A DNA stretch of 64,000 nucleotides from a virus (IMGVR_UViG_3300031369_000002:24666-88665), one strand, 5' to 3'; counted from the stretch's first letter, positions 3,990-45,552 are shown. Notes: generated from the letters alone by a model not told the origin. Made by a program: numbers and translations.

Positions 3990-4083
3990 ATAAAATAAGC
4001 CCCTGAAAAAGGAGCTTACTTCTTAAAAGGCATAATATGTAGTAAATTACTTATATTATATCAGCCTCAGAGATTACAATCAA
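3990..4083 (-). ncRNA. candidate sRNA unit (~55 nt) with its own promoter and terminator
   Basis: TTGATT(4078-4083)-17-TATAAT(4055-4060); terminator 3996-4018 plus U-rich tail; no ORF; a new promoter follows at 3950-3980. Confidence 0.5.
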
Positions 4084-4278
4084 ATCTAAAATTTTAATTT
4101 GATTAAAAGACTTCAAGCATAAATTATCATCATAGGCATTTAACAAATACTCGGCCTTTTTCTCTAACCCATTATAATTAATTATGGTCTCGATCTCTTT
4201 ACTGGGTAACTGGACCGCAGTTACAATCATTTTTTTATTAGGTTTCTTTAATTTACTCTCATAAGAAGCTCTATTCAT
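4051..4278 (-). CDS. hypothetical phage protein
   Basis: ORF with RBS AGGAGG. Confidence 0.7.
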   Translation of the reverse strand: MNRASYESKLKKPNKKMIVTAVQLPSKEIETIINYNGLEKKAEYLLNAYDDNLCLKSFNQIKILDLIVISEADII

Positions 4279-4292
4279 TTCTTAGCTTCCTC

Positions 4293-5276
4293 CTAAAATA
4301 AAGCATATGTATTCGCCAAATCAATGATCACACTATTATTATCCCTTACAATAGCGGACTCATTTAATAAAAATAATTTCTTTATCCATTCAATAGACTG
4401 CTCAAAGTATTTAATATCTTTCTCTATACCTATAAAAAATCTCTTAGTATTTGCACAAGCTATTCCAGTACCGCCCGACCCAAAACAAAAATCTAAAACA
4501 GTATCACCCTCATTACTAAAAGTTGTTATTATATCCTCCAATAATCTTATAGGCTTTTGCGTAGGATGTACTTTAGCATAATCCTTTTTATAATAAAACA
4601 CACTGCCTTTAAAATTACCTTTGATATTAAAAGTTTTATTATGTCTTGCAAATCTATCACATACTTTAGCATAAGGCCAAAAGTTAGGAGCTTTATCAAT
4701 ATGGAATACATTAATAAGCTCCTGATATATATCCTCAGAACATAATTCAAATTGTAGAGTATCCCACCTTAAAAAGTGTTCTGCTTTTCTATGTCCTAAG
4801 ATATGATTTATTTTAGTCCTATTAACATTTATATAAGACATTAAGTATTTTACATACAATCTAACAGGGTTATTATGGTTGCTATCATATTTCTTACAAA
4901 AAATACTTATGTCCTCATGATATTTAACCAAAGCTTTTTTAGCTATTAAATTATTTGCAAAATGATCCTTAACCCATACAGCATCATATAAAAAGAACAA
5001 ATTTTCATGTTTATAACTTCTTAATTGTGAAGTATAAGGCTCCTGGGAAAACACTATTAAATAACCCTTAACTCTCAGCAACTTATTACAATGATTAAAA
5101 AATTTGTCCATGTCTAACCTATCATCCCAGGACGTATCCTGATTAGAATAACCTTTTAATTCAATATCTTTAATCGTTCCATAAGGAGGGTCCACCAAAA
5201 TTAAATCTAGCTCCTTATGGATTTTAGTCATCTCTTCAAAACAATCACCATTATATAAAAGCATAATTCCTCCCAT
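4293..5276 (-). CDS. DNA N6-adenine/N4-cytosine methyltransferase (beta class)
   Basis: DPPY catalytic motif, HPTQKP, VLDFCFGSGGTG SAM-binding motif, FIGIEKD. Confidence 0.92.
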   Translation of the reverse strand: MGGIMLLYNGDCFEEMTKIHKELDLILVDPPYGTIKDIELKGYSNQDTSWDDRLDMDKFFNHCNKLLRVKGYLIVFSQEPYTSQLRSYKHENLFFLYDAVWVKDHFANNLIAKKALVKYHEDISIFCKKYDSNHNNPVRLYVKYLMSYINVNRTKINHILGHRKAEHFLRWDTLQFELCSEDIYQELINVFHIDKAPNFWPYAKVCDRFARHNKTFNIKGNFKGSVFYYKKDYAKVHPTQKPIRLLEDIITTFSNEGDTVLDFCFGSGGTGIACANTKRFFIGIEKDIKYFEQSIEWIKKLFLLNESAIVRDNNSVIIDLANTYALF

Positions 5277-5280
5277 AAAT

Positions 5281-5493
5281 TAAAGCCCTTTAAAAAAATA
5301 AAGAGCTTTAAACAAATATATTAAACTACACAGCAACAATAATAATAAATAACTTCTATATTGAGTATAGCATAAGGCTATACAAATGTAAACATTAAAA
5401 TAAGCCCCATACAGAGCTTATTTTAAAGTCAATAACAGTTCCATTATGAAAAAACTATACAACTATTATAAAATACCATTTTACTTTAGTCAA
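5281..5493 (-). promoter_or_regulatory. Two tandem sigmaA promoter-hairpin units; the upstream one is a candidate ~60 nt sRNA
   Basis: TTGACT(5488-93)-17-TATAAT(5465-70) then terminator 5395-5426; TTTACA(5387-92)-17-TATACT(5364-69) then hairpin 5281-5310 before the MTase RBS. Confidence 0.6.
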
Positions 5494-5651
5494 TTATTTC
5501 TCATCTTCCAAACTATTAACCATAGCCTCATGTTCTACCACAACTTTTTTAATCCTGCTTATTAACCAAACACCTACTACATAACATACAACAAAGATTA
5601 AATAAGCAAACATCAACACATAAATTCCAGCTAACCTACTCATAATTTCAC

Positions 5652-5873
5652 CTACCCTGTAATCTCAGGAGTTATAATTGTAGGTAAAGTAACATCAGGA
5701 GTTATAGTCGGTGTTGGCGTAGGAGTATGAGAAATAGGCGTATAAGATTTAAAAGTCCTACGTATATTTGCCTTTTCAAGCTCCTTTTTATTACCATTTT
5801 CATTGTTGGAAGCCAACAATAAACCAACGATACAAAATCCTAAAACAATCAAAACTAAAACTACTTTTTTCAA
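5652..5873 (-). CDS. small secreted/membrane-anchored protein with Pro/Thr-rich tail
   Basis: N-terminal hydrophobic helix; TPTPTPTITP. Confidence 0.65.
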   Translation of the reverse strand: MKKVVLVLIVLGFCIVGLLLASNNENGNKKELEKANIRRTFKSYTPISHTPTPTPTITPDVTLPTIITPEITG

Positions 5874-6165
5874 AAGAATCCCCCTCCTTTCTTACTTTTT
5901 AATAACCAACTTTTCCCAATTACGACACTTACTATTCTTGGGATTTGCACAGACCCATCTAGTCCATTTATTAGTATCTTCTATACAAGTGGCTTTATCG
6001 CCACACTCTGCACAATACATAATCTTAATCCTCCCTTTCTTAGCTTCCTTTTATAGAAGCTCTAACAACTTTAGTAATCATAGGGAACCATACTACACTA
6101 GTACTCCCTAATAACAAACATGCACTAATTATAACAGTTTTCAATAAAATTCCTCCTCTCCTAAG

Positions 6166-6831
6166 TTAATCGAAAAAATCACTAGTCTTATCAAAAAGGT
6201 CATAAGCATTATACTTATCTCTGAGAGCATCGAATTTTTTCTCTCTATCTTTTAATCTATTAATTAAATCTTTAACTGTAAACCCACAATCTCGTAGTCT
6301 CATCATACTAAAGTCATCCTCCAAAAGAGCAATAAGAGACTCTTTTGCATTTTGTAACAAATCCCTATAAATTTCTATCTCAGCCTCTAGACAATTGTAC
6401 ACATAATCATATACAATCTTACACAAATCTGACAAACTGAGTTGAAATACAAGAACCTCGGCCCCACTATCAAAAGCCTCAAAAACAAAATCCTCTTCTT
6501 GTATAAAGCACTCTATAGGAAACCTTATTTTATAATTATCAGGTTTAAAAGAATCCTGATAAAAATATTTTACTTTGCGTAAATAATCCAAGCATTTATT
6601 TTCTAATAAAGAATACTCTATCTCTATCTTTTTTATAATGCCATCCTCATCATAAACATTATCTATTTTCACATTCTCAGCATCACAAATCCAAGTTATT
6701 TTTGGAGTCTTTTGTAACTGTCCAAACTCAGTTATTCCTAGACGTTCCAAATCCTCGACTTTTAAATCTTCCACTATAAAATCAAAACTTAATTCTACTA
6801 CCATAATTATGCCTCCTAATAAATTATACAC
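6166..6831 (-). CDS. hypothetical acidic protein
   Basis: Long ORF; probable start at the MVVEL ATG after AGGAGG. Confidence 0.75.
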   Translation of the reverse strand: MYNLLGGIIMVVELSFDFIVEDLKVEDLERLGITEFGQLQKTPKITWICDAENVKIDNVYDEDGIIKKIEIEYSLLENKCLDYLRKVKYFYQDSFKPDNYKIRFPIECFIQEEDFVFEAFDSGAEVLVFQLSLSDLCKIVYDYVYNCLEAEIEIYRDLLQNAKESLIALLEDDFSMMRLRDCGFTVKDLINRLKDREKKFDALRDKYNAYDLFDKTSDFFD

Positions 6832-7314
6832 TCATCCAAAAACAGCCTCTTCATAATCTTTTAAAGCTTTTATATACACCTCTCCCATATAGGTGTATTC
6901 AATTTTTTTATCATACACATTAGCTTTAAAATATCCCACAAAAGCATCTTTTAGCTCTGGCTTAATATATTTCTCAAAAGCTTTATTAGCTACTTTAAGA
7001 TATGCACCGTAGCTATTAAAATTTTTAAACATTAAATGCCTATACTTATCATAAAACTCCCTTTTAAATACAATAGAAGAATAGTCTAGAAAAACCTCCT
7101 CAATATAAATAGTACTATTAAAGTCTTTTGCTAACTCAAATAATCTAGTTTTACTTAAATCCTCAGAATTAGCACAAATATCAATCTCAGAACTAAGACA
7201 AATATCAAGTACAGGATATTTATCTTTAAACTCCTTTCTTAGTTCAGTTAAATTAACCACCTTTAATTGTTTTCTCTTAGCTTCCTCTATAAAATCTTTT
7301 ATTTCCTTAACCAT
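6832..7314 (-). CDS. hypothetical protein
   Basis: ORF with RBS AGGAGG. Confidence 0.75.
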   Translation of the reverse strand: MVKEIKDFIEEAKRKQLKVVNLTELRKEFKDKYPVLDICLSSEIDICANSEDLSKTRLFELAKDFNSTIYIEEVFLDYSSIVFKREFYDKYRHLMFKNFNSYGAYLKVANKAFEKYIKPELKDAFVGYFKANVYDKKIEYTYMGEVYIKALKDYEEAVFG

Positions 7315-7754
7315 AAATACCTCCTAATAAACTATACTCTCATACCACATAACTTTGCCACATCTAGAGCATTTATGTTCGTATAATAGAATACCTGAGA
7401 AGTCCTCAGTTTTTCCCGTATACTCAAAATACCCTATGCAATGAAACCTATCACATTTTACTGCCATACTAAAATCCTTTCTTATAATATTATACAGCCT
7501 CATATTTAAAAAGACTGTACTTAAATTTATTTTAAAACAAAGCGGGGAAATATTCCCTACTCTATTATAAATTTTCCCCAGTTGTTAACCACTGACTCAT
7601 ACAGTTCATTACAACTATCAAACTTATTCATGTCTATCATATAGTTATCAAGTTCCCATTGAGAGAACTCAATTCCTCTGTCCATCAACCTACTTGCAAT
7701 TATTTTTTTAGCTATAACACTTAACATCTTAACGTCCTCCTCAAAATTTATTAT

Positions 7755-7800
7755 TTATCTTATGTTCTTATTATATAATAATCCTTTACATGTGTCAAGC
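7755..7800 (-). promoter_or_regulatory. Class I (early) sigmaA promoter with palindromic -35 and CATAAGATAAA start motif
   Basis: TTGACA(7793-98)-17-TATAAT(7770-75). Confidence 0.85.
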
Positions 7801-7816
7801 ATAAAGCTAAAAATTT

Positions 7817-8059
7817 TTAACTTAAATTTCTTATAAAATGCAGTATACCCAAGGACTCCAAATCATTTAAAAATCCCTCTGCATTAACTCTTATTTTTAT
7901 GCCTTTTAAAATATTAACTCGATCTCGGACCTGACACATATATATCAAGTCCGACTTATCATTACAATAAGCTGCCTTTTTCATTTCCTGGACCACTTCA
8001 AGACAAGTATCCCCAGAAAATATGTTTTTATCATCTCTATATTTTAACATTCTATTCAC
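7817..8059 (-). CDS. hypothetical protein downstream of amidoligase
   Basis: ORF with RBS AGGAGG. Confidence 0.7.
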   Translation of the reverse strand: MNRMLKYRDDKNIFSGDTCLEVVQEMKKAAYCNDKSDLIYMCQVRDRVNILKGIKIRVNAEGFLNDLESLGILHFIRNLS

Positions 8060-8077
8060 CTCCTGACACTATTAGCC

Positions 8078-8920
8078 CTAAGAGGCTAATAATGCTTTTC
8101 TTCCAGTATAGAATTTCACTACACTGGCTTCAACCTCTGCGGTATACATCAAAGACTCAAACCATTTATTTTGATTTGGTCTTTTAGCTACGACTTTTTT
8201 AGCCCTGGCCCCTCTTTCTACTAAACCCTGAGTTAATAATAACCAGTTTAAGATTTTTTCAAACTCTACAGTACCACTATGATGACGAAACTCAATAGTG
8301 CCGTAAACAGCATAACTGTTTACATTTAATTTTCTATATCTAGCTCTATAAGTGTCTGTGAATACTTCAAGCAAGTCACTGACTGTACTTTTAGAGTCGA
8401 TCAAATCAAATTTAGCTTTTAAATTCATACCTGATAAAGTTCCAACATCTGAGAAGTTTAAGCAATACATATTAGCATTGCCTTTTCTTGAGAGAGGCAT
8501 AAAATTATCAATTTCATCCTCAAACTTTAAATAGGCCTTAGTTAGCGTTTTCCAGCTATCCAAGGTATAATCAATAATTTCATGATGGATATGCAAGCCA
8601 CAAGACTTGTTAACAGTGGCTCCTATGGTATCTAATACAGCACATACAGCCTTTAACTGATTAACACCATCTTTACCAGATAACGGCGGCGATACTAACT
8701 CATAACCTTTAAAATTAACTGTTTTAATTGATTCCTCAGGCTTTATGGAACAGTCAGTAACAACTTTCCAACAGTTATTTAATACTTCATGAGTATAACC
8801 AGCATACACACAAGGTATACCTTCACTCATTAAAACATCTGCTATAGCTCTACCAGTATACTGCTGAGGTACCAACATTTCTATTTCAATCCCAAACTTT
8901 CTACCAGTTAATTTTTTCAT
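8078..8920 (-). CDS. putative amidoligase (COOH-NH2 ligase, Amidoligase_2-like)
   Basis: FGIEIE, WKVVTDCSI, ELVSPPL, NKSCGLHIH, RYRKLN, GTIEFRHHSGT motifs. Confidence 0.9.
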   Translation of the reverse strand: MKKLTGRKFGIEIEMLVPQQYTGRAIADVLMSEGIPCVYAGYTHEVLNNCWKVVTDCSIKPEESIKTVNFKGYELVSPPLSGKDGVNQLKAVCAVLDTIGATVNKSCGLHIHHEIIDYTLDSWKTLTKAYLKFEDEIDNFMPLSRKGNANMYCLNFSDVGTLSGMNLKAKFDLIDSKSTVSDLLEVFTDTYRARYRKLNVNSYAVYGTIEFRHHSGTVEFEKILNWLLLTQGLVERGARAKKVVAKRPNQNKWFESLMYTAEVEASVVKFYTGRKALLAS

Positions 8921-8949
8921 TTTTAAAATCCCCCTTAAATTTGTTATGA

Positions 8950-8996
8950 TTTATCTTATGTTTACATTATATAATAAACCTTTACACATGTCAAGG
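8950..8996 (-). promoter_or_regulatory. Class I promoter
   Basis: TTGACA tgtgtaaaggtttatta TATAAT gtaaaCATAAGATAAA. Confidence 0.9.
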
Positions 8997-9039
8997 AGGA
9001 TTTTAAAATTTTTATGTTAATATTTAATTTTTTTATTTT

Positions 9040-9681: not shown

Positions 9682-9705
9682 AATTGTCTCCTCCTAAAAA
9701 TATAA

Positions 9706-9752
9706 TTTATCTTATGATTTAATTATATACCTATGCTTTACACATGTCAAGG
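9706..9752 (-). promoter_or_regulatory. Class I promoter
   Basis: TTGACA(9745-50)-17-TATAAT(9722-27), then CATAAGATAAA. Confidence 0.85.
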
Positions 9753-12700
9753 ATTATTTTTTATTTCTTCTAAAACTTCATCATCTAAACTGCAGTGATA
9801 ACATAAACCCTCATAATGCTTTACAACTCCACACTTAGGACACTTTAAAAGAGCCTCAGCAGAAGCATCTTTTTTAAACTTCTCTATAAATCTTTTATAT
9901 CTGGCTTCTAATATAGAGGCCTTATCTTTTCTATTAAAATAAGCCTCCAACAATATATAAAGATCAGCCATCTCAGCTTCCCATTTATCGCTAACCTTCA
10001 TATACTTATATTCATGATCGTATAAAAAAGAAACTTCTCGAACATGATCCATAATACCCAGCTTATTAAAATACTCCTTAGCATATATTTTAGCTATCTC
10101 AGCCACATATTGAAACTTTTCAAACATAAATATTCCTCCAAACGAAATAAAGGCGACCAACAAAAGGCCACCTTATTTTTTACAATCCCTACATGTTTTA
10201 GTTTTATCATCCCAGCATTTAGGACAAACCAACTTATCACAAGTAGGACAATAAATCATATCTTTTTTTATATGCATATTGATACACAAATCACAATTAC
10301 ACATATAAGTATAGCGTTTTTCTGGCTTTTCTTCCATAATAAAAACCTCCTCATAGATAAAAGGGAGACATAATCTCCCTAAGTTTACTTACCTTTTTTA
10401 TATTTATCTCGTCTTTTTTGGTGATAATCTTTCACTTTCTGATTACCTGGCTTAGTAGTATCACAAGGACAATCTTTTCCAGGCGGTAACCCACAAACAG
10501 GGCCACCTTTTAAAGTCTCACAATACCAATCACAGCCTATCTGAGTACACCTTTTAGATATCTCAGTCATTTAATTCCTCCTTTAAAAAGCGTTTAAATG
10601 AGTTTCAAAAGCTGTCTTAGCTTCCTCCTCTGTGCCTGTAAAAATAAAACAATGGTTAAGTCTATTAGAAGACACATAAGCAAAATCATCTTTTGTCTTT
10701 AGGGCTTCTACAAAACTTACAGGAAAAGTTTTTCTAATTCTTACAGTAGTATGCCCAGTGACATCATCATAACTAAAACTAACTTTTTTCTTCCACATAT
10801 CAACGCCTCCAAATATAATTTATCTTACATTCTTATTGTATAATATTCCTTGACATATGTCAAGCTTTTATTTAAAATAATTTATAAATATTAGGCTGTT
10901 TATAAAAGCATTCAAACTTAATATCATCTAAACTTATTCTAAATTGCATTCCATTTTTACAGATAAGCATTTCATTAGAATCATTAAAAGTAACTGAGTA
11001 ATAATTTCCTTCTTTATCAGTACCCCTATATAATCCATCATCTTCATAAGCTTTATTTATAGCCTGAATAAAATGCATTTAATCACTCCTTACAGCTCTT
11101 ACATGTTTTAGTTTTGCTATCCCAACAATCATCACAAACATTATGCAAACAAGGGTAACAATAGTTACCCTTTTCATTTTCTTTCAATATGATAAGCTTT
11201 TTGCAACAACCACAATGCACCATAACTCCAGCACAATTATAACTGTTAACACTGAAAAAAGAAGGTCCTTTATCTTTCTTTTTTCCAAACATTTAAAACA
11301 ACTCCTACTCTTTTATGTAAAATTCACACTATCAAACGAAACATTACAGATTTCATTTTCCCCAGGTTTTATAATAAACACTCCCCCAGTTAAGCCCTTA
11401 TTTAGCCACTTAATTCCGTCCTGTATAGCTGCATGATTAACATCATTTAAATTTACCTTATACTCATATAAATCTCCAAAACTTAAAAGGTATACAGGCT
11501 TATCCCCATACAAATCTTTATCTATATCAACAGTACATAAAACGCTTTTAGTTTCAAATACGCTGATATCATCCTCATATTTCACACAAACACGCATAAT
11601 TCTCAGCCTCCTTCCTTATCTACATTTATTGCATAAACCATTAGAATAACAGTTAATACAAACCATATTTCCGCATTTAGTACAGGTATAGAGCCTAAAT
11701 ACATAGGCTCCACAACCAGCACAAACTAACACTCCAGTCATACTTTATCCCTCCTAAAAACTATCTGATTTCTGTAATCTCCCATGTACGACCACATTTA
11801 TTACATTGATGATAAACTACGACTTTCTTTCTTCTCTGATTATTAATAACTATTTCCTCCGTAGATTTTACGGCCGATATTTTATGCCTACTATCACAAT
11901 TACATTCTTTCATAAATAAACATATCCTCCCTTTACAAGTTTTATACTAAATTCATTATGACAGTTATAACAGATGGAATCATAAAACACATTCCCACCT
12001 CTATAAACAGAGATAACAAATTGATTAGTATTACATTTAAGACACTTAGGCTCCTCCATAAGAACCTCCTACAAATTTTCTAAAAAAGCAGCTAACACCA
12101 TTAGCCAGCCACTTACACGATTTATAATTTTCATTAAATAACCTCCATATTAGGCTTTATTATAATTCCATTTATGACCGCATTTAGTACATTCCAAAGG
12201 GATAGAATCCACTGGTCCAACAGGAGCAGTGAAATAAACTTTTTCTCCACACATAGGACAAACCGCCACAGAAATAGCCATAAGACACACCACCTTTCCT
12301 TTAAAAATTACCTTTCTCATCACAACTAATAATAAACTCATGTTGACATTTAATACATACAACTTTAATATGCCAACCATCAAACATCTTTACAGGCTCA
12401 GCACCTACAGCAGGTACTAAGAGGCCACCACAGCCAACTGCTCTACATACTTCCATTTCTTAGCTTCCTCTCTAATTTTCAGCAAATAAATCAATGCCAA
12501 GAAGTTGTCCATCTCTTTTACTTTTATCACAATAATCTCGATACTTACCCTCTATTCTACCAAAGACTACAGTAACAGCATGATGCAGCTTAGTTTTATT
12601 TAAATAGTTGTCTAAATAAATAACCCATATTTCACTATCAAAAGTAGCCTCTAGTAAATCAAGAGTAGAATCATCAATAAGCTTTTCACTTATTAACACA

Positions 12701-13771: not shown

Positions 13772-13782
13772 CTCCTTACACC

Positions 13783-13887: not shown

Positions 13888-13902
13888 ACAAAGAAATTAT
13901 TC

Positions 13903-14292
13903 TCAGCTTCCTTGCTTATCTTTCTTTTGCCAGGATTTAAACTCTTCTATCTTTTCAGCTAAAGTAAACCCATTACCATCGAAACAGATTGCCCTATCAT
14001 CTATAGTCAAATAAGCTGCCTTCTTATGTGCTGATATTTCATCATAATAAATATTATGCTCAGTACAATAATCCTTAATAGCTTGTATACCTTCCTTATG
14101 AGTACACCTTGAGGAATAAATAACTATCTCATACCTTCCACTATCTTTTAACCCATCTATACACTCTTTCATGCCTTCAACAACAGGATCAGGAGCCATA
14201 TCAACTCCATGCCAGCCACTAGTATAAGAATGTATAACTCCATCAAAATCAAACAACAATCTTAATTTATTCATTTCTTTTTTAGTCTCCAT
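13903..14292 (-). CDS. HAD-superfamily phosphatase-like protein
   Basis: LFDFDGVIH motif I, IYSSR motif II, TIDDRA motif IV. Confidence 0.8.
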   Translation of the reverse strand: METKKEMNKLRLLFDFDGVIHSYTSGWHGVDMAPDPVVEGMKECIDGLKDSGRYEIVIYSSRCTHKEGIQAIKDYCTEHNIYYDEISAHKKAAYLTIDDRAICFDGNGFTLAEKIEEFKSWQKKDKQGS

Positions 14293-14330
14293 AAAGACCT
14301 CCTATAAAATAATATTCTTAGCTTCCTTAG

Positions 14331-14491: not shown

Positions 14492-14507
14492 GCCTACACC
14501 TTTATAC

Positions 14508-15016: not shown

Positions 15017-16274
15017 TTATATACAAACCTCAACTTTTTTTAAATTTCCAGGAATACTTACAGTCAAACCACAAAGTAGACAGTTAATATTTGTATACAT
15101 AGATTTTTCATAAGACACCTTAGAACTCTCTACTTTAGAAGGTATAACCTCCTTTTTCTCTATAAAAAGTTTATGTCTAGTATTGCACTGAGGACATACA
15201 AAAGTCATATTACTATTAGACTCATCAATTCTAATTTCACCTGTTATCAAAAATAATAAAAACTTACTTATAGAATAGCCAGTTACTTTCTCGAACTCTT
15301 CCACATCTCTTCTTAAACCTTCAATAGTAAACTCATCTATTAAGGCTTTTCTTTTACCATCATCTTTTAAAGCCTCCTTAAAATCGTTTAATAACTTTTC
15401 TTTTTCATCCATAAATATCTCCTCCTATAATACACTCATTTTTTACCTTTTAAACACCTTTTATTTTACCTTATTAATAATATAACACCCTTACCTATTA
15501 GATTAATTTAAACCATAATTTTAGGTTAATTTTAGGCTGATTTTACCCAAAAACCATTGAGCTGTCTTAAAGTAAAATTAATGTTTATTCAAGTTATCAT
15601 AAAATAAATTAATAATCATGTCTTACAAATAATTCTCTACATTCTGTACAATACTCCATTGCTATAGAGACACCTATGCTTCTCTTATAATTCACACCGA
15701 CCTTACTAACCCTTAAATCCTTATATTTATTGGTATACAAAGGAGTCTTACACTCTGGACATTCTTTCAGCCAATAACTCTTAGACCTGTATATCTTGCC
15801 CCTCGTTATAGCAGTAAACTTCTCCATACTGCACACGACCTTTCTATCTTAGTATTTAATTAAAGCAACCATTTAATCCTTTTTAAGTATTTTCTATAGC
15901 ACCATACTTTTAATTGCATACAGTTAATACAATAAATATACCCATCCCCTTTATTGACCTCATTACACTTAGCTATTAACCAATAAACATATAACCTTAT
16001 TCGTATGTACTTAAAGCGTCTTTTTATTTTTCTCTTACAATTATTTATTCTCATTCTTATTACTCTCAAAATATAAGTTATGCTCATCCTTAAAAGATAG
16101 TTTATTAAATAGCTCCTCAGTTACATACAACATAGAATCTCCTACAGTAGTACCATTAACGTCCATCTTAACATATAATCTGAAGCTTGCAGGTAAAGCC
16201 TCTTTCTTATATATCCTAAATTTAATCTCTGACATAACAACACTCCTTTTTATCTTAGCATTTAAAATCATCAT
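15017..16274 (-). other. small hypothetical genes (two zinc-ribbon proteins and others)
   Basis: ORFs 15017-15412 (CPQC/CLLC), 15609-15836 (CPEC/CTEC), 15860-16087, 16041-16274. Confidence 0.65.
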
Positions 16275-17777: not shown

Positions 17778-18623
17778 TTAAACACCTCCTCTTAATATTT
17801 TCTCCATTAAATCGACTATACCTATAGCTTTAGCAAACTCATAACTTTTAGGCTCTAAAAATTCAAGTCTATCAATCTTATTAGGTCTTTTCTCAAAATG
17901 TATTCCATACAGGCAAAACTTACAGCCTGTACGAAGTTCATACTTATAAATATCACATAATTTTATATTATGGTACATGATATATTTATTGACTAATTCA
18001 TCAGACCATAATCTTAATGGAACACATTTATTAGGCATTATACAGGTATTGTATTTTTGCTTTCTTAAAATACTCTCACTTATACGCTCCCCAGTAAAAT
18101 AATAATGCCCTAATCTTTTTAATGGAGCTTTTTTTAAATGATAACAACACTTATCACTAATTTTTATATTTGTATCCAACAGCCATCTCCATTTATTAGA
18201 TATTCTAAAATTACCGTTCCCTAATCTAATATCCTTTGTCTTTTGACAACACTTAGGATTCCTAACATCTGATATATATCTGGATTGCTCTTTTGATATA
18301 ATAGGATAACCATAATCTTTTATTACACCTACAAAGGATTTTTTAGGTTTTACTATTTCAACATTATCAAAACTTTTAACAAAATCAACTATAGAATTAT
18401 ACTCAACGCCAGTATTACAAAAGATAGGCTTTATTCCTGTCAACACACTATCAATTAAATGCTTTAATACTGTACTATCCTTACCACCACTAAAACTCAA
18501 TGCTATATCATCTTTCCCCATAAAGGCTATAACACTAAATATCTTTATTTGTGCTTTTTCTATCAACATTTTTTCATAATCAGTAAACACTTGCTTAAAC
18601 CTCCTATCCTTTTTCTCTATCAA
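17778..18623 (-). CDS. phosphoadenosine phosphosulfate reductase family protein
   Basis: SFSGGKDS PP-loop, FCNTGVEY, CCYHLKK, RTGCKFC. Confidence 0.88.
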   Translation of the reverse strand: MIEKKDRRFKQVFTDYEKMLIEKAQIKIFSVIAFMGKDDIALSFSGGKDSTVLKHLIDSVLTGIKPIFCNTGVEYNSIVDFVKSFDNVEIVKPKKSFVGVIKDYGYPIISKEQSRYISDVRNPKCCQKTKDIRLGNGNFRISNKWRWLLDTNIKISDKCCYHLKKAPLKRLGHYYFTGERISESILRKQKYNTCIMPNKCVPLRLWSDELVNKYIMYHNIKLCDIYKYELRTGCKFCLYGIHFEKRPNKIDRLEFLEPKSYEFAKAIGIVDLMEKILRGGV

Positions 18624-18694
18624 TAGGTAAAGGTTCAGTAGTTTCTTTAGGCTTCTCAGGAATATAATTTTCTCCTTCTACCATAACACCCCTC

Positions 18695-20028
18695 CTAAAA
18701 TATAAGATGAGGACAACTAAAAGCCGCCTCTACTTCAATTAATATAATAAAATCACCTGACTGTATACCAGGTAAAATCTCATTAATTTTTTTAACTGTA
18801 ACCTCAGCGGCAATACTTACCATATCACTACAAGAGGTATTATAATAACCCTCTGAGTAATACTTACCGCTCCTTTTAAAGTAAGTTAATTTCACTCTAT
18901 ACATTTCCTTTTTCTCCCCTTTACAGCAATGACAATGCATATATTTTTTTATATATTCACAATAATAAGTCAATTCTCCGCATTTTTCACATCCACCAGA
19001 AAAACACCTATTATCAGCTAAAGAAATACTCTTGGGTATACTTAATATTTTAAAGCAATCAGCCATAAACACCTACTCCCATAATCCAAACTTTACAAAC
19101 TTGCCATCCACAAAATAGACCACAGTCTCAAAACATGTATAGCCTTCAACCTTTTTAGTATCAGCCGATAAAACCACATTTTCTCCTTCTTTACTATAGG
19201 CTACACCCCAATTATTCAACAATGCTATAAACTTATCAAAATCAGACAAGACCAACACCTCCTTTAATATTATACCTACCATTAAACAAAAAAGCATGTA
19301 CAATTTAAAAATTATACATGCTATAACTATTAAATTAATCCTGACCAATTATTATAAGTTCTACCATTATCATTAGCGAATAATATATAACAGTTTAACT
19401 CAGTATCCCATATAAATTTAGAATTAAAGTAACCCTGACCAGTCTTTAAAGTGCCAGTTATACATTTAAAGTCTGGCACCTTTTTAGTCACCTTATATCT
19501 AGCCTCTAAATAATCCACCAGATCATATACATCATCTAAGAATATACCTCTGGATAAATTTTGTATTCTCTTATCATCAGCAAAAAACTTTCTCTCAACC
19601 CTATTCTCACACACCATTACTTTTAGTTCTTTCATTCCCATTCCCTCCTTATCACACCATTAACCTATACACTCAGCAAACCCTTTAATAGCTGCCTGAA
19701 ACAAATCTCTTTCTAAATCTTCAAAGCTTTCTATTTCAGTACACTTAAATGTTCTTTTTAACTTCACTAAATCACCTTTAACACCACTTTTAACAGTCTT
19801 TACAGTGTTATCAGAATAATCTGATAACTTAGTATATCTCCAAGAAGAATCAATCTTTTTTTGAGCTTTTACCCATTTTCTATAGGCTTGCTTTTCATGC
19901 AAAGCCTTTTTAGAAATATGCCGAAAACACTTAACTTTATCACCTTTTATCTCTTTTATGGTCCAGGGTAAAAATAAACCCCTGACCTTACTTTCTAAAA
20001 CTAAATCACCTTTATTAAAATCACTCAT
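18695..20028 (-). other. small hypothetical genes
   Basis: ORFs 18695-19072, 19073-~19250 (true start TTG after AAGGAGG), 19330-19641, 19660-20028. Confidence 0.65.
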
Positions 20029-20053
20029 ACAATAATTCCTCCTCCTAAAAATT

Positions 20054-20100: not shown

Positions 20101-20151
20101 TTTAATATAAAAAGAGAGGATAATTAAATAACCTCTCTTTTCTCAGCTTCC

Positions 20152-22719: not shown

Positions 22720-23472
22720 TTAATTAAAAAATTCTTCTAAATCAATATCATAACAATTATACCAGGCATCTGCATGATAACAATTAACGCTGCCATAATT
22801 AACATCAGGTACCTTTTTAATTTCCACCTCATACTTTTTAGAGTAATCCTTCAAAGGTTTCCATCTAAACTTACGATTAGTAAACATCTCAACTTTTTTA
22901 ATGGTAGCATGTTTTTTATTAAATCCTACCTCTTCTCTTAACTTATTAACTTCTCTACTAAGATGAGAAGCAGTCACCATAGCTGTAGCAGTTTTCTTAT
23001 CTGATATCCAGGCTTTAGTTCTAATAGCCTCATCTCTTTCTCCTATAACTACAGCCTTTTCACCCTCTAATTTTTCAATAGATAATTGCTTTTCAGCAGC
23101 TAACATTAAAGCTTCCCCATAAGTTTTAGGTACATTTAAACTATAGCTGCCAGTCTTTCTAATTGAGGGCAATACTTCACTAGTAACCCACTTCTTAAAT
23201 TTCTTAGCTTCCTCTTTCTTACTTGATAAAATTAAGGAATATAACCCAGATTCATTAATGATAGTTACACTATTTGTCCCTAATTCTTGAATTGAGAGAG
23301 TGGCTCTGTCATCTTCATCAACATGTCTTATCAAAGCGTTATACGTATTAGAATAATCTAAAATATGAGCTACATCCACGCCAATAAACCAAGGCTCCCC
23401 TTCAATCTCTAAAGACCTAATTTCAAATCCTAACCCTTTATCATCTTTCCAAACTTGTAACGCACTGTTCAT
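22720..23472 (-). CDS. Bro-N domain antirepressor-like protein
   Basis: EPWFIGVDVAHILDYSN...IINESGLYSLILSSKKEEAKKFKKWVTSEVLPSIRKTGSY. Confidence 0.92.
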   Translation of the reverse strand: MNSALQVWKDDKGLGFEIRSLEIEGEPWFIGVDVAHILDYSNTYNALIRHVDEDDRATLSIQELGTNSVTIINESGLYSLILSSKKEEAKKFKKWVTSEVLPSIRKTGSYSLNVPKTYGEALMLAAEKQLSIEKLEGEKAVVIGERDEAIRTKAWISDKKTATAMVTASHLSREVNKLREEVGFNKKHATIKKVEMFTNRKFRWKPLKDYSKKYEVEIKKVPDVNYGSVNCYHADAWYNCYDIDLEEFFN

Positions 23473-23492
23473 AAAACTCCTCCTAAATATAC

Positions 23493-23629
23493 AAAGCCCC
23501 TATATACCACCAAGTCCGACCTCAGTTATATAGGGGCTTTTACCTTATTATTTAGGTTTTTTAGTTTGGGTCGGATTCAAACCAAAAAACCTACTCAGGT
23601 ATAATATCAAATTTTAGATTTATAGTCAA
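23493..23629 (-). ncRNA. structured 5' leader: two hairpins with complementary loops (kissing loop) upstream of the Bro-N gene
   Basis: TTGACT(23624-29)-17-TATTAT(23601-06); hairpin 23553-23593 loop AAUCCGACC; hairpin 23493-23540 loop contains GGUCGGA. Confidence 0.7.
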
Positions 23630-23964
23630 CCTCTTAATCTTTTTCCTTCATCAATTCCTCTGCACACTCCGCACAAACATTTAAAACCTGCTTTGTTTTT
23701 TTATGCGTCATTTCAATTAAAAAATAATGTACAGTCTTACTACATTTCTCACACTTAGCAGTATATACAGGCCTCACTATATCCCTCCTTTCTACCATTT
23801 TTCGAGTTTACCGTCAATCATCCAGCCATACTTACAGCGACTACAGTAGCACTTTTTAACCTTTACGGTACCACCTTTAACAAACTGGGTATTTTCATCC
23901 ACCTTATCAGACTTGCCACACTGCGGACATACTTCTTTAACAGCCATATCAATCCCTCCTCATA

Positions 23965-24300
23965 CTATACATTAGGAGCATTAGTCCTTAGAACATAACA
24001 TTCAGGAGCAGGCTCCCAGCAAAAAAACATATTATCCTCATTAATTAACCTATCAATAAATACCTGATAATAACCTAAATGCAAACAAACATTATAGCCA
24101 CCAGCTTTGACCGCACTATCCATAGTATCAGCCAATAAATCATATTTTTCTAAGAGTTCTTTTTTAGGTCCAGTTAACTTAAAGTCAAAAGGAGCAAAAG
24201 ATATCCAAACTACCTTTGATTTCTCAGCAACATTACACATTACTTTTGCTGGCTTAATAGAAATCAAAACATTACTTCTATCTAACAATGTAAATCTCAT
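23965..24300 (-). CDS. hypothetical protein
   Basis: ORF with RBS AAGGAGG after a structured leader. Confidence 0.7.
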   Translation of the reverse strand: MRFTLLDRSNVLISIKPAKVMCNVAEKSKVVWISFAPFDFKLTGPKKELLEKYDLLADTMDSAVKAGGYNVCLHLGYYQVFIDRLINEDNMFFCWEPAPECYVLRTNAPNV

Positions 24301-24315
24301 TTCATTCCTCCTTAG

Positions 24316-24610
24316 AATAAATAAAGCCTCTTATTTTATGTTAAAAGTCAGAGTAACATAAAACAAAAGACTATTTTCATCATGTATTATTATATTTAAG
24401 GTTTTAAACTTGACTCTGACAACAACTTTAAAACCTTAGATACTTTAAATAAAATAAGCCTTCTCCTTGCCTATAGTTGTGATAGGACACGCATTTTCGT
24501 CGAAGCAGAAAACTTAAAGACCGCAAGTGGTTTACACAAGCTAGATTACTAAAATCTCTTCGATAACTTCATCCTAAAAACAATATAACACAAAATGATG
24601 TATCAGTCAA
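24316..24610 (-). ncRNA. ~260 nt structured RNA leader ending in a kissing-loop hairpin pair and terminator
   Basis: TTGACT(24605-10)-17-TATATT(24582-87); hairpin 24397-24438 loop UUGUCAGAGU; 19-bp hairpin 24325-24372 (3 G-U pairs) loop CUCUGACUUU. Confidence 0.7.
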
Positions 24611-24619
24611 GCATAAATT

Positions 24620-24773
24620 AAAAACACCCTAGAAAATTCTAGGATGCTAAAACCTGCAACACATTATAAATTATAAGAAAAGTAAAACTAATATTTATCA
24701 CTTATTATCCAGCACATAATAAATGAACCATTCGACTTAAAAGAAGTATAACATATTAAATCATGCCATGCAA
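24620..24773 (-). ncRNA. candidate sRNA (~115 nt)
   Basis: TTGCAT-17-(TGt)TATACT(24745-50); terminator 24624-24647 plus U tract; a new promoter follows. Confidence 0.4.
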
Positions 24774-25103
24774 CTGACAACGAATTTTAATATCACAAGG
24801 ATTAGCTCCAATATTTTTAGCCACTAATCTAAAAGAATAGCCTTGAGGGCCTCCGTTACGATAAGTAGTATATTGACCAAAAGCCGCACTCATAGGAACA
24901 TTAAAAGGCATATTAGGCACATCCTCAACAAGTTCCGAATCTCTTCTTTGAAAATCAATTTCTATATCCTCAGTATTAGTGATCATCATTAAAACATCTC
25001 TAACAAATTGAATATCATTAAACCAACCAGATTTAACAACGCCACCAACATTAAGTCCAGATACATCAATAACTAGACCCTTATCAATATAATTTGTATC
25101 CAT
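24756..25103 (-). CDS. hypothetical beta-rich protein (start MDTNY)
   Basis: GGAGG RBS before the ATG at 25103; the track start (25160) overlaps a terminator. Confidence 0.65.
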   Translation of the reverse strand: MDTNYIDKGLVIDVSGLNVGGVVKSGWFNDIQFVRDVLMMITNTEDIEIDFQRRDSELVEDVPNMPFNVPMSAAFGQYTTYRNGGPQGYSFRLVAKNIGANPCDIKIRCQLHGMI

Positions 25104-25160
25104 AAAATACCTCCAAAATATTAGTATATTTCCATAATAGCATACTCTTTTTACTAACAC

Positions 25161-25294
25161 AAAAAATAGAAGCTTTTGGCTTCTATTTGTATTTATGGTG
25201 TAATCCTCTATATAAATCCGTAAACTTATTTATAGGAAGGAATGACTAAAAGTATTTATAGACACATTATACTTTAGTCATTCACCAAAGTCAA
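25161..25294 (-). ncRNA. candidate sRNA (~95 nt) with anti-SD segment
   Basis: TTGACT(25289-94)-17-TATAAT(25266-71); UUUUAGUCAUUCCUUCCU near the 5' end; internal hairpin; terminator 25164-25188 plus U tract. Confidence 0.55.
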
Positions 25295-25958
25295 ACTTTC
25301 TTCTCAATAATGATTTTAACTTTCTTAGAAACATCCTCTACCAGATCACAATTAAATAAATCTTTTAATTTATTTAAAGCCTGGCCATCCACCCCAGAAT
25401 ATTCCCTATAATCTTCTATCTCATAAAGCACATCATTTAAAACATCCAACTCCGCATAAGATAGAATAGTTTCCTCAGGATATATTTTATCTTTTAATTC
25501 CTCTTTATCATCCTTATCAGGCTCCAAAGAACCATCAAGCCAAAAATATCCCTTTACTTCAACATAAGTTTGATTTTTTAAACCTAATAAATTAATTAAT
25601 ATTGCTTTTAAATGACCCATATGCATCTCATCAGGCCCAACCTTAGAGCCTATTATAGCAGTACATTGCATATGACTTGTCATAAGCTCAGACCTAATAT
25701 AAAACTCTACACTATAATTATATATCTTTTCCATTCTCATTCCTCCACTATAAATACTTTTTGAACCATAATATAAGTACCATCTTTTAAATTTAATAAG
25801 CTTTCTAAAACAGACTCAAGATAACTAAAGGACACCTCATCAGGCCCAACTTTAGATTGGATTGTATCTGAAGATAAAATTCTAGTATTTATAAAATCTG
25901 ACTCAATAGTATATTTGACCACATAATCATAAAATTTATCCATCTTCATTCCTCCCAT
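25291..25958 (-). CDS. tandem paralogous hypothetical genes (25291-25740, 25737-25958)
   Basis: Shared SKVGPDE...L..LL.LK..TY segment. Confidence 0.7.
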
Positions 25959-29844: not shown

Positions 29845-29853
29845 TACAACCTC

Positions 29854-32271: not shown

Positions 32272-32272
32272 A

Positions 32273-36340: not shown

Positions 36341-36383
36341 ATAACAACCTCCATTTTTTTATTAAATATTATACCTATAAAAT

Positions 36384-38621: not shown

Positions 38622-38670
38622 AAAATTTAAAGCCTATATAAATAAACTATATAGGCTTTATAATATAAAA

Positions 38671-39837: not shown

Positions 39838-39843
39838 CTCTCC

Positions 39844-40338: not shown

Positions 40339-40350
40339 ATAATCAATCCT

Positions 40351-41133: not shown

Positions 41134-42007
41134 TTTCCTAATTCCAATAAAGAATCAATAATTCTTTTTTGTTCTTGATATTCCACAGAATCCTGCCGTA
41201 AATACCCTATAGCAACTTTAAATAAAAGTAGCTGCAATAAAGCTTTACCCTGCAAATATTTTAATTGCACATCAGGATCACGCCCATTAATAATAGGATA
41301 ATCATTACTATCTATTTCAACATGAAACTCCATCATCTCATATTGCTTACCTATATTGCATTTACAACCCATACTAATAGTCATAAAACCACTCCTACCT
41401 TTTACTTATATTAATTACATTATATTTAATCTCCTCCTTACAATGAGGACAAACAGCCACTATAGAAAAACTTCCCTTCCTATAAAATTCCCTCCTGTCT
41501 ATAGTGGTCAATGTCATAATAAAAGTATACTTTTTAACATCAGCAGGTAATTTATCACACATATGATCTCTTACCAACTTAGAAGGAAATTTCTTAAGTC
41601 TAACAATCTTTACTTGCATTAAAAAGCTCCTTTTTCTTTTCACACTCAGGACAAAAACACCCTTTATCCTCAAGCCAAACCCACTCATTATCTAAAATTG
41701 GAGTCTGATTACAATTATTAAAACCTCTAACATCCATACCCATAGAACATATATTTTTATTCATCTATCATAACCTCCATCAAAATTTATAATAATAATT
41801 TCCTTTGCTGCCTCTTCCATAGTCCTATAATATTCTTCTAAAGATACCTGACAAAGAGAACATATTTCTCTATCCTCATTTTTACACTCAGGATTCAAAG
41901 GACATTTCAAATCCTCCATAAATTCCCCTCCCTTTTTCTAACTAAAATATTATACCTATAAAAATAGAAAAAAGACAGTTAAGATTAAAAAATCTTAACC
42001 GCAAACA

Positions 42008-44509
42008 TTATAATTTCAAACCAGTAGTTAAAGCCTTACCACTAATAGACTTAGAATCTAAAGTTAATTTACAAGTACAAATCATTTGAAATTTAGACTC
42101 ATCATCTAAACCTAAACTTGTAGTTATATTAATAGGCACCTCAGCACCAGGAAAATCTATAATTATTTTATTTTGTCCAGGATAAGCAGCTATTAAATTT
42201 TTTATAGCAGAAGCTTCCACAGGATTTAATTCCTTAGGTATAACTACTCTTAAAATAACAGGAGATTTATTAATAACTTTATTTTCATCAGAAACCACAT
42301 TTAAATCAACTTTTTTATCTTCCTCAGGGTTTTTATCTGGAATATCTTTAGACCCTTTATCCGCAAAAAACTCGCCAAATCCAAAATCATCTTTTCCAGT
42401 ATCAAAAGATTTTTCTATTCCTTCTCCCCAATCTAATAACTCACCATAAGAAGGTCCAACCTGAAAATCCATTTTAATATGAGGAAAATTAGTAATAGGA
42501 ATCTCACAAGCTTTCCGCATAGCAGCCATTAATTTAACCACATCAACGGACCTATGTATATAAAAAGCAAAGGAGTCATGAGTAGTTAATATAGGTTTAA
42601 TAACATCATTAAACCGAGGCCCAAAATCTTTTAAAAGAGTCTGTCCTAATCTATACATGGCAATACGCATAATATCTGCAGCAGTACCTTGCACAGTAAT
42701 ATTAAAAGCTTCTCGCTCAGCCTTAAACCTTAATTTACTATTATCACTTCTAAACTCAGGCATATGAGCAATACGCCCAAAATGAGTCACTACATAACAA
42801 TTTCTTTTTGCCCCATCAGTAATATCTTTGATATGTTGAACTCCCTCAGGAATAGCCTGAAAGTAGTTATTAACATATTTCTGACACTCCGCTTTTGCTA
42901 TCCCAATTCTTTTAGAAATACCCATCGCCCTCATACCATACATAATACCAAAAGAAAAAGTTTTACCATCAGACCTTAATTTCTTTGTAACCTGAGCCTC
43001 TGGCACTTGGAAAATCATAGAAGCATTTTTAGTATGCATATCAACACCATGCCTATAACCTTCCAATAAAGCTCTGGACTGAGAACGTCCAGCAAATACC
43101 CTATACTCTACCTGAGAAAAGTCACCCTCTAAGACATAAAAATCCTTAGGCGGTACATAACACTTTCTCACATTACAGCTAATCTCATAATCATCTCCAT
43201 AAGGGTTATAAATTTCCCAACTGGCTTTCTTAGGCTGATTTTGCATATTAGGGTCATAAGAAGCAAAACGACCACTTATAACATGAGCCGTAGCGTAAGA
43301 AGTATGAATCCTATTAGTAATATTATTAATATACTCCTGCATACCATTAAAGAAATCCTCAGCATGTTTACGAATAGATCGCCAATAAAGAATATTCTTA
43401 ACAATAGGATAATCTTTAGCCATTGCCTCAAGCACAGTGGCATTAGTTGAAGGTTTACCAGTCTTAGCAGACCTTTCCTGAACTGGATAACCTAATCGCT
43501 CAAATAAAATTCTACCGACTTGAGCAGAAGAACCTAAATCAAAAGTAATTTTAGCTCCCACTTTATCAGAAACAAACTCATAAATTAAAGTCTGTAATCT
43601 GACATTCTCCGAAGTTAAGGCTTTATATTGTCTTTTCATTTCTTCAATATCACATAGCACACCATTTAACTCCATCAACTTAACCAATGGAATTATACCT
43701 TGATCGACCTTTAATAAAAACATATCTTTAACTTGAGGATATAATTTATTAAATAGTCTTAAGGTCATATCACAATCAGCACAGCCATATTGATAAGGAC
43801 TAACCAAATCTCCACCAGGTAAAGGGATTTCTTCTCTTGGGTCCAAAGTCTCAAATCTGATAAGGTTAGCCTTTTTAGCCTTAGCTTTTTTACCAACACT
43901 TTTCTTATCAGGGTCAACCCCAAATAATTGCTCTATCTGAACCATTTGAATCCCTAACTCAGATAAGACTATCTTTTTAAGACTAGCCGTTGAGCTACCC
44001 GTTCCAATATTCATATAACGGCCTGTTAAATAGGCCATAGCCATAGTATCAAACTTAACAAAACAATTAATACCAAGCTTTTTAAATAAGGTAGGTTGCC
44101 ATTGAATACCCATTTCTTTATGAAAAATAGACAACCACAAATCAGTGGCATAATTAGGATTATTCTTTATAAAATCATCTGTCAAGTAAGAAGCTCCTAG
44201 AAGAGTTTGATCAAACTTTCTATTGTGGGCTACATAACAAATATTTTCATTTTCCAAACAAGGTTTTAAAAGCTCTAAAGCCTTATCATAATCAATATTT
44301 TTCCCTTTCTCATGATTAACAGGAATATACACCCCAGTTCCTTCTTGCCAGGATAAACCTATCCCAACTATATAATCATCATAAACAGACAAGCCGCTTG
44401 TTTCCAAGTCTATAGAACAAACGGACACATCTTTTAAAACGTTTATTACTGCATTTAATTTCTCTTCCTCATCAATACACTGATAAATTACATCTTGAAA
44501 TATAGGCAA
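42008..44509 (-). CDS. polA: family A DNA polymerase with 3'-5' exonuclease and C-terminal extension
   Basis: DLETSG, HNRKFD, YGCAD exonuclease motifs; SGRFASYDPNMQN, DFSQVEYR, KTFSFGIMYG, QGTAADI, THDS. Confidence 0.95.
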   Translation of the reverse strand: MPIFQDVIYQCIDEEEKLNAVINVLKDVSVCSIDLETSGLSVYDDYIVGIGLSWQEGTGVYIPVNHEKGKNIDYDKALELLKPCLENENICYVAHNRKFDQTLLGASYLTDDFIKNNPNYATDLWLSIFHKEMGIQWQPTLFKKLGINCFVKFDTMAMAYLTGRYMNIGTGSSTASLKKIVLSELGIQMVQIEQLFGVDPDKKSVGKKAKAKKANLIRFETLDPREEIPLPGGDLVSPYQYGCADCDMTLRLFNKLYPQVKDMFLLKVDQGIIPLVKLMELNGVLCDIEEMKRQYKALTSENVRLQTLIYEFVSDKVGAKITFDLGSSAQVGRILFERLGYPVQERSAKTGKPSTNATVLEAMAKDYPIVKNILYWRSIRKHAEDFFNGMQEYINNITNRIHTSYATAHVISGRFASYDPNMQNQPKKASWEIYNPYGDDYEISCNVRKCYVPPKDFYVLEGDFSQVEYRVFAGRSQSRALLEGYRHGVDMHTKNASMIFQVPEAQVTKKLRSDGKTFSFGIMYGMRAMGISKRIGIAKAECQKYVNNYFQAIPEGVQHIKDITDGAKRNCYVVTHFGRIAHMPEFRSDNSKLRFKAEREAFNITVQGTAADIMRIAMYRLGQTLLKDFGPRFNDVIKPILTTHDSFAFYIHRSVDVVKLMAAMRKACEIPITNFPHIKMDFQVGPSYGELLDWGEGIEKSFDTGKDDFGFGEFFADKGSKDIPDKNPEEDKKVDLNVVSDENKVINKSPVILRVVIPKELNPVEASAIKNLIAAYPGQNKIIIDFPGAEVPINITTSLGLDDESKFQMICTCKLTLDSKSISGKALTTGLKL

Positions 44510-44934
44510 AATAAAACAACTCCTTTCAATTTTAAATATTATACCTCAAAAATAAATTAAAAGCATGTGCAATTTTATTTTTGCATAGCTTCTTTTTTAC
44601 AATCATCACATAAATCTTTTCCTGCAATATAGGACCTCTCAACCCTAGCATTACAATGCTTACAAAGGATTTTATTACAAACTTCACACTTAACATATAA
44701 ATCCTTAAAATGCAACCCTTCACCACAGGAAGGGCAATACTTATCATATTCAATTTTTTTAGCCATAAACTCCCCCTAACCCATAATAGAACCGCAACCA
44801 CGACAAACCCATTTTTTAATAGACTCATCCCAATCCCAGTCCCTCATTCTTAAACATTTAATGCAATAATTAAATTTAACTGCCATAACTCCCTCCTTAA
44901 ACGGTAAAACCCGCCTTTAAGCGGGTACTTTAGT

Positions 44935-45291
44935 CTATACTTTTATTTCTTTATTAGCGATTTTCGCTAATTGATTACTATATTTTAAAAGTTTTACTCT
45001 TAAATTAGCTACCTCCATCTTAGTTAATCCTCTTTTGCTTATAACTCTCTCAGCTATTTTAGTCATATATGGAGCGTCATAGGCTGAGAATCCAACTCCA
45101 TTAGACTCATTAGTATGCTTATAAGCTTTCTCGTCGGCTGTTTGTAACTTATATAAAGTCACAACACCTTTCAAGACTGCATTTGAATTTCTAAGAAGTA
45201 AATTCCTTATCATTTCACCTGACCATACCTTGCTAGTTTGGTCTTTCTTTAAAACCTTAACATCTGTATTTAATAATGCAAATCTACTCAT
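44935..45291 (-). CDS. conserved phage early protein
   Basis: LYKLQTADEK...NGVGFSAYDA; follows class I promoter 45320-45366; terminator 44909-44927. Confidence 0.75.
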   Translation of the reverse strand: MSRFALLNTDVKVLKKDQTSKVWSGEMIRNLLLRNSNAVLKGVVTLYKLQTADEKAYKHTNESNGVGFSAYDAPYMTKIAERVISKRGLTKMEVANLRVKLLKYSNQLAKIANKEIKV

Positions 45292-45383
45292 AATCGAATC
45301 CTCCTAAAAAATTTAATAATTTATCTTATGTTTATATAATACCATAGTCCTATACATATGTCAAGGAAAACCATTAAATTTAT

Positions 45384-45552
45384 AAAAAAATAGGTAGAAA
45401 CTTTTTAAGCTCCTACCACAATCTTTTAATTTCATATCATTATTTAAGGGAGTTCTAACTGAAATAATTCCAACATCCACCAACTAGATATCCTAAACTA
45501 TTATCAGACAAGAACATTATATTATACCTACAAAAGAGTAAAATTTACTGTT
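45384..45552 (-). ncRNA. candidate sRNA (~130 nt) from a class II promoter
   Basis: AACAGT(45547-52)-20-TATAAT(45521-26); terminator 45393-45417 plus U7; AACUCCCUUA anti-SD; a class I promoter follows. Confidence 0.5.

Follow-up and report, generated by a model that had tools for sequence, protein, structure and literature searches.

The stretch of DNA considered here comprises bases 24666-88665 of IMGVR_UViG_3300031369_000002, a virus record of 88,665 bp that is complete and bears direct terminal repeats; this whole stretch of 64,000 nt is referred to below as the window. Seven places in it, named u1 to u7, had been put forward in a first-pass annotation as stand-alone candidate units composed of a promoter, a short RNA and a terminator, and had been read as a suite of phage small RNA (sRNA) genes. 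All seven are on the minus strand, and coordinates are those of the whole window. Rather than forming a single family of RNA genes, the seven units are sites at which an intrinsic terminator comes shortly after a promoter. Units u1, u2 and u7 are true promoter-terminator-promoter units, u3 (with a class II promoter) and u4 are 5' leaders of genes, u5 is the 3' untranslated region (UTR) and terminator of gene 25103-24756, and u6 is ambiguous between a leader-attenuator and a separate unit.

DNA of this uncultured phage is carried by salt-marsh and wetland metagenomes, no RNA library being among the sequencing runs listed for it. Its genome is A+T-rich, cassette-built and organised on one strand: the minus strand carries every substantial open reading frame (ORF), with 70 kb of ORFs in total versus 1 kb on the plus strand, and the coding strand is strongly skewed (G 21.7%, C 9.6%). 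Identifiable genes include those for helicases, DnaB, a ligase, a family A polymerase, a UvsX-like recombinase and a methyltransferase. No DNA match was found among annotated phage records, where the best protein match was that of the polymerase, with about 30% identity. Neither tRNA nor transfer-messenger RNA (tmRNA) genes were found in a search of the window, and searches of protein families near the units returned nothing informative, most of the neighbouring proteins having no known family.

All intergenic regions were written out, and each promoter was matched to the terminator and the gene that come after it. Sigma70-like sites were ranked by a simple hexamer score, and the class II promoters were defined by the motif WAC-N20-RGGTATAAT. 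Sigma70-like sites scoring at least 11 numbered 19 on the minus strand (16 intergenic and 3 coding) versus 2 on the plus strand, and each of the 10 strict class II matches preceded a gene and was on the minus strand. The promoters of u1, u2 and u6 are among the 19 sites, that of u1 being one of the three in coding DNA; those of u1 and u4 are good matches to the sigma70 consensus. At u4, the -35 region copies the box of the early promoters described below and the -10 box (TAATCT) is degenerate. The site assigned to u5 (TTGCAT-17-TGtTATACT) scores 9.5 and is at chance level, because such a score is as common on the plus strand (122 sites) as on the minus strand (133 sites); the promoter scan of this region also showed no promoter excess. 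The earlier remark that several promoters are embedded in the last codons of the upstream gene was borne out for u1, u5, u6 and u7, whose promoters overlap these codons or the stop, and the -35 box of u2 begins just past the stop.

Terminators were called with a tool requiring at least 3 G-C pairs and 5 T in 8, and a separate, looser scan for hairpins followed by a T-tract was also run. Five of the seven units (u1, u2, u5, u6 and u7) have a solid intrinsic terminator, with a stem-loop and U-tract called by the tool on the minus strand. The hairpins of u3 and u4 fall below its thresholds, are absent from its list and appear only in the looser scan. In each region scanned, terminator-like sites far exceeded those of its shuffles; hairpin-plus-T-tract sites of -11 kcal/mol or lower had a density of 2.2 per kb in intergenic versus 0.30 per kb in coding DNA (7-fold), and at -14 kcal/mol the intergenic density was 24 times the coding one. 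The G-U pairs of the terminators work only on the minus strand. The terminator stems of u1 and u2 are alike, with a 13-nt identity. The succession of promoter and terminator claimed for all seven sites was thereby recovered at u1, u2, u6 and u7; at u5 the promoter does not exceed chance, and at u3 and u4 the hairpins do not qualify as terminators.

The spacing from start to terminator was computed at 57-125 nt, consistent with the 55-130 nt given at first. No ORF led by a ribosome-binding site (RBS) had been seen in between, which applies to u1, u2, u4, u5 and u6; the exceptions are a 40-codon TTG frame in u7, broken by 1-nt and 4-nt indels in relatives, and a 27-codon ATG frame in u3. Units u1, u2, u6 and u7 combine a promoter and a terminator of their own without an ORF; u3, u4 and u5 do not. 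Because a good promoter and a good terminator stand there with no ORF, short terminated transcripts are predicted as likely at u2, u6 and u7, and probably also at u1. So much of the proposed suite is retained, but as a set of sRNA genes it is not supported. A promoter followed by a terminator is insufficient to call an sRNA gene in an A+T-rich genome built of cassettes.

The four cases in which a fresh promoter had been said to follow the terminator directly were all found again (u1, u2, u5 and u7; Table 1). At u1, u2 and u7 the terminator is the sole terminator of the upstream operon, and the new promoter comes after it. The same arrangement is present outside the window, in a unit at -6401 to -6567 (genome about 18100-18264) that is of the u2 type and comprises a TTGACx promoter, about 92 nt, a hairpin at -6499..-6527 and a promoter at -6539. 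Since in u3 and u4 an RBS directly follows the hairpin, with no promoter between, these two are leaders. Between the terminator of u6 and gene 25103 there is only a weak extended -10 element (TGCTATTAT). A terminator standing between promoter and gene with no other promoter is found at u3, u4 and the leaders at 5392, 13520, 23629 and 24610; it is not found at u1, u2, u5 and u7, and is doubtful at u6 owing to the weak TGCTATTAT element.

Table 1. Positions of the promoters, terminators and hairpins of units u1 to u7 in the window.
Feature	Position	Strand	Description
u1 promoter	4083-4055	minus	TTGATT-17-TATAAT with TG; score 11.5; in last codons of gene 4278-4051
u1 terminator	4022-3992	minus	13 pairs, -14.8 kcal/mol; also ends gene 4278-4051; identical in relatives
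Promoter after u1 terminator	3981-3950	minus	class II
u2 promoter	5493-5465	minus	TTGACT-17-TATAAT, 11/12 consensus; -35 directly after stop of gene 5643-5494
u2 terminator	5426-5395	minus	A-tract, stem of 14 pairs, U-tract
Promoter after u2 terminator	5392-5364	minus	TTTACA-17-TG.TATACT; 85-nt leader ends in hairpin 5306-5285, before methyltransferase gene
u3 promoter	13888-13857	minus	class II motif match
u3 hairpin	13815-13786	minus	stem nearly all A-U, then T6; 14 nt before start of gene 13771; inside 27-codon frame 13851-13768
u4 promoter	14491-14463	minus	TTGACA-17-TG.TAATCT; score 10.5; kept in L006
u4 leader hairpin	14365-14336	minus	weak tail TTTATCT; 43 nt before start of gene 14292
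u5 terminator	24648-24623	minus	108-132 nt past stop codon of gene 25103-24756
Promoter after u5 terminator	24610-24582	minus	from promoter scan
u6 promoter	25294-25266	minus	TTGACT-17-TATAAT, 11/12 consensus; -35 overlaps TGA stop of gene 25734-25291
u6 terminator	25188-25164	minus	60 nt before start of gene 25103
u7 tandem promoters	45657-45626 and 45553-45522	minus	class II, two motif copies
u7 terminator	45417-45393	minus	followed by class I early promoter
Promoter after u7 terminator	45364-45336	minus	class I early promoter

The sigma70-type promoters were of two designs. One is that of nine early promoters, which have in common the box CTTGACAYRTGT and a transcribed tag, CATAAGATAAA; their leaders of 30-39 nt have no hairpin. 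Strong sigma70-like sites without the tag, at 25294, 24610, 23629, 14491, 13520, 5493, 5392 and 4083, are each followed by a hairpin that precedes the next start codon, and two further untagged sigma70-like promoters upstream of the window (-2471 and -6401) likewise have a terminator-like hairpin before the next start. This layout of promoter and hairpin is common to all strong untagged sigma70-like promoters, including those of plain gene leaders, which argues for leader termination and not for separate RNA genes. Furthermore, at least three hairpins with a U-tract within operons, at 48563-48528, 38660-38628 and 10380-10362, come 16-24 nt ahead of a start codon and leave no space for a promoter; read-through must occur if the genes behind these hairpins are to be expressed, and the terminators of this phage would have to be either leaky or overridden.

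It should be added that the early box with its tag (TTGACAYRTGT-N23-CATAAGATAAA) also matches the IMG/VR contigs L025, L026, L029 and L034, which are one family, and L031:1151-1195. These contigs are otherwise dissimilar to the phage, so the tag is not private to it. In several class II promoters, the upstream box (GTACATGC or TAACTGT, then a T-rich spacer) doubles as a part of a terminator hairpin, namely its 3' arm and U-tract at 19322-19293 and 42002-41975 and its loop region at 55173-55144 (minus). No match to Sigma70_r2 was obtained in the family search of the genome, and the single Sigma70_r4_2 hit was weak (E 7e-4, below the cut-off); it is in gene 3718-3335 (minus, 127 residues), and this gene comes shortly after the class II promoter at 3981-3950. 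At u6, the -10 box and start site are flanked by a 12-nt inverted repeat, 25283-25272 / 25251-25240 (GAATGACTAAAG ... CTTTTAGTCATTC), which is kept in L007 and whose half-site occurs nowhere else in the window; it could be a putative operator. Another terminator-like hairpin (12113-12087, minus) is inside an RBS-led 21-codon ORF (12149-12060) for a hydrophobic peptide, MKIINRVSGWLMVLAAFLENL.

For comparison, only two related IMG/VR contigs, with 91-95% identity, and an 89-kb metagenome contig (run X3) were available. Metagenomic relatives of the polymerase (about 50% identity, 45-59% G+C) had none of these promoters and were of no use for non-coding comparison. The 89-kb relative retains u2-u6. 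Units u1 and u2 are identical or nearly so in the relatives, and the whole methyltransferase module equally so. Compared with the relative L003, the gene upstream of u2 is hypervariable, with indels and an identity of 27-83%; on the downstream side, in the methyltransferase module, identity is 98-100%, and the jump from the one range to the other falls exactly at the u2 -35 box (5493). This mosaic boundary indicates that the promoter-terminator pair travels with the downstream module.

In the terminator of u5, two G-U to A-U changes keep the stem and the loop is altered, and in that of u6 the loop alone is altered. At u7, two one-sided changes preserve pairs, and a 4-nt deletion in L001 costs the 5' hairpin five pairs. 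The body of u4 has many substitutions together with 2-nt and 7-nt deletions, its promoter and hairpin being retained. Indels are carried by the bodies of u4 and u5 and by the 5' part of u7 among relatives that are 91-95% identical, and no pair changed on both sides was seen among the units in these relatives. As the stems are retained while loops and bodies vary, selection is visible on the terminator stems and not on the RNA bodies. Conservation in related phages had been suggested as a check of the sRNA proposal, and in these relatives no unit was conserved above the neighbouring DNA.

The relatives also differ in gene content. The 89-kb relative is without whole small-gene cassettes, 15599-15856, 17784-18691, 19649-20048 and 10158-10173 being among the sites, and has 1301 extra bases directly past the terminator 10174-10150. 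Cassettes are here gained and lost at the joints of leaders and terminators. A 12-mer, GGAAGCTRAGAA, occurs in 17 copies (at most one mismatch), all on the minus strand, versus 1.1 expected, spread over 2198-51089 of the window (for example 4279-4290, 12457-12468, 14315-14326, 13900-13911 and 20140-20151, minus). It is often found right at a start codon (GGAAGCTAAGAAATG) or spanning a stop codon (GGAAGCTGA) and could be a shared motif of translation initiation or of module junctions.

The reading that we prefer, and to which we give about even credence, is that promoter-proximal termination yields short leader or by-product RNAs together with gated read-through. Transcription would be started by the host-type polymerase at sigma70-like sites or by a polymerase directed to class II sites; most transcripts would stop 57-125 nt on, at the hairpin and U-tract, leaving a short leader RNA, and a fraction would continue into the next block of genes, possibly in a regulated manner. 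At u3 and u4 there is no promoter past the hairpin, and at u6 there is probably none; the hairpins of u3 and u4 may act as leader attenuators or leader structures because read-through is the only route to the gene; the same could apply to u6. At u1, u2 and u7 the terminator would mainly end the upstream operon, and the short RNA would be a by-product or a second, conditional input to the next unit.

Several points weigh against this. The genes downstream of u1, u2 and u7 have their own promoter, so that read-through is not needed there and a stand-alone function is possible. A search of the complete genome for Phage_antitermQ, Antiterm and NusG was negative. In the intergenic DNA around u1 and u2 (336 bases), divergence from relatives is slightly lower than in the adjacent coding DNA. 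Moreover, the sister leader at -2471, upstream of the window, contains AAUUUAUCUUAU and UUCUCCUUU, which are complementary to the early tag and the Shine-Dalgarno sequence, and at least one such leader RNA could act in trans. Promoter-proximal termination may also be extended to a genome-wide switch, an idea that we regard as doubtful: at least 12 untagged promoters gated by leader terminators would be released in a timed manner by a phage factor or RNA, and some of the short RNAs would in addition be trans regulators of early mRNAs. This added role could fall to u2, u6 and u7 and to the unit before the window that carries the anti-leader sequence.

That at least u1, u2, u6 and u7 are stand-alone genes of trans-acting sRNAs, pairing with phage or host mRNAs or titrating a protein, was the view of the first-pass annotation, and we consider it unlikely. 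It draws on the strong promoters, the good terminators, the lack of an ORF between them and the fresh promoter behind, on the coincidence of the u2 module boundary with its -35 box, and on the anti-leader sequence of a sister unit outside the window. Folding of the units is also much stronger than that of shuffled sequences (z -3.7 to -5.2), but these scores come mostly from the terminator hairpins. For targets, the 5' parts of the units were searched against 144 translation-initiation regions of the phage and compared with shuffled RNAs. In u6, CAUUCCUUCCUAUAAAU pairs with the ribosome-binding region of gene 13122 at 16 of 17 positions, and u6 alone among the seven RNAs tested beats its shuffles (-32.2 versus a mean of -26.7, standard deviation 2.2, z about -2.5); the match is, however, a generic anti-Shine-Dalgarno stretch. 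Complementarity to phage mRNAs, which had been named as a check, thus gave nothing beyond shuffles except this marginal case, and perfect antisense matches to phage transcripts were at most 13 nt long (E about 0.06-0.1). Among the relatives of 91-95% identity, no seed region outdoes its flanks in conservation, and the pairs lost from the 5' hairpin of u7 in L001 also speak against such genes. Rfam returned nothing but noise, both at the gathering threshold for the whole window and in E-value mode for 3900-5700 and 23400-25400, and a blastn-short search for paralogues of the units turned up nothing but the terminator stem common to u1 and u2 and the duplicates of class II promoters.

Alternatively, the upstream promoter-like sites could have been left behind by the shuffling of cassettes, as silent relics or as chance matches, with terminators that only end the upstream operons and no distinct RNA. 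The chance-level promoter of u5, the location of the u1 site in coding DNA and the degenerate -10 box of u4 beside its copied -35 region are all in line with this, as is the fact that the u7 promoters are duplicates of a class II promoter with genes under its direct control at other places. In relatives, whole cassettes come and go where leaders and terminators join, and in T4-type phages genes are shuffled via composite promoter-terminator motifs (PMC4122927). Against it, sites scoring at least 11 are very scarce in coding DNA and on the plus strand, which makes a chance origin of u1, u2 and u6 unlikely, and the units are all retained in every relative seen; on balance we find silent relics improbable. 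Least of all do we expect u3 to be a leaderless mRNA for a 27-residue peptide (13851-13768, MRGRTKKPSKFVKDYTVWGIIFFGVRR) with translational coupling to gene 13771 by way of an overlapping ATGA. In its favour, the ATG coincides with the transcription start predicted for the class II promoter, 5-7 nt past the -10 box, the frame ends as ATGA at the next start codon, and the sole L006 substitution within it is synonymous. Against it, this is a single informative substitution, the start position is itself a prediction, and a frame of 27 codons in 80 nt is possible by chance.

Promoter-proximal termination has precedents in other phages. In phage lambda, the constitutive promoter PR' runs into the nearby terminator tR' and gives the short 6S RNA, the downstream genes being reached solely via read-through, with Q antitermination. 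The units described here resemble it in that a promoter runs into a close terminator and is predicted to give a short RNA; they differ in that no Q-like or other known antiterminator was found in this genome and that there are many such sites, not one. The lambda oop RNA, of 77 nt, has its own promoter and terminator and is antisense to cII. It is likewise a stand-alone promoter-short RNA-terminator unit of a phage, whereas the units here are intergenic, on the same strand as all genes and without any antisense match of more than 13 nt.

In six Pseudomonas phages, experimental mapping has revealed that about 25% of transcription units are without a feature and that 42 terminators lie in 5' UTRs; at T102 of phiKZ, more than 90% of transcripts are stopped, giving a 71-nt RNA, and 29 candidate 5' UTR-derived RNAs were proposed in these phages (PMC10914365). 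Our units share with such RNAs (phiKZ T102, TU237; PMC10914365) a promoter, an intrinsic terminator less than 250 nt on and no ORF, a design that there gives a short abundant RNA with a minority of read-through. The Pseudomonas phage RNAs were, however, mapped and confirmed by northern blots and ours are predicted, the phages and hosts are unrelated, and three of the units here precede a second promoter and not a gene directly. The PeSL motifs of T4-type phages (PMC2839356, PMC4122927) may be comparable in being repeated cassettes of a terminator plus an early promoter that flank small accessory genes at indel or mosaic boundaries. In the present phage, a terminator plus a tagged early promoter recurs at least 5 times, joints of cassette size are seen in one relative and the boundary at the u2 -35 box is sharp, a layout that recalls PeSLs and might reflect recombination. 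Unlike these units, a PeSL is a terminator/promoter recombination motif with no promoter described upstream of the terminator, and the two have no sequence similarity.

The units with predicted short RNAs therefore match a kind already known from other phages and are not a proven set of regulatory RNA genes. The present result mainly refines the annotation, by setting apart promoter-terminator-promoter units (u1, u2 and u7), leaders (u3, u4 and perhaps u6) and a plain 3' UTR (u5). If the short RNAs exist and are regulated, they would represent a compact temporal control by leader termination in a lineage without a cultured member or a known antiterminator.

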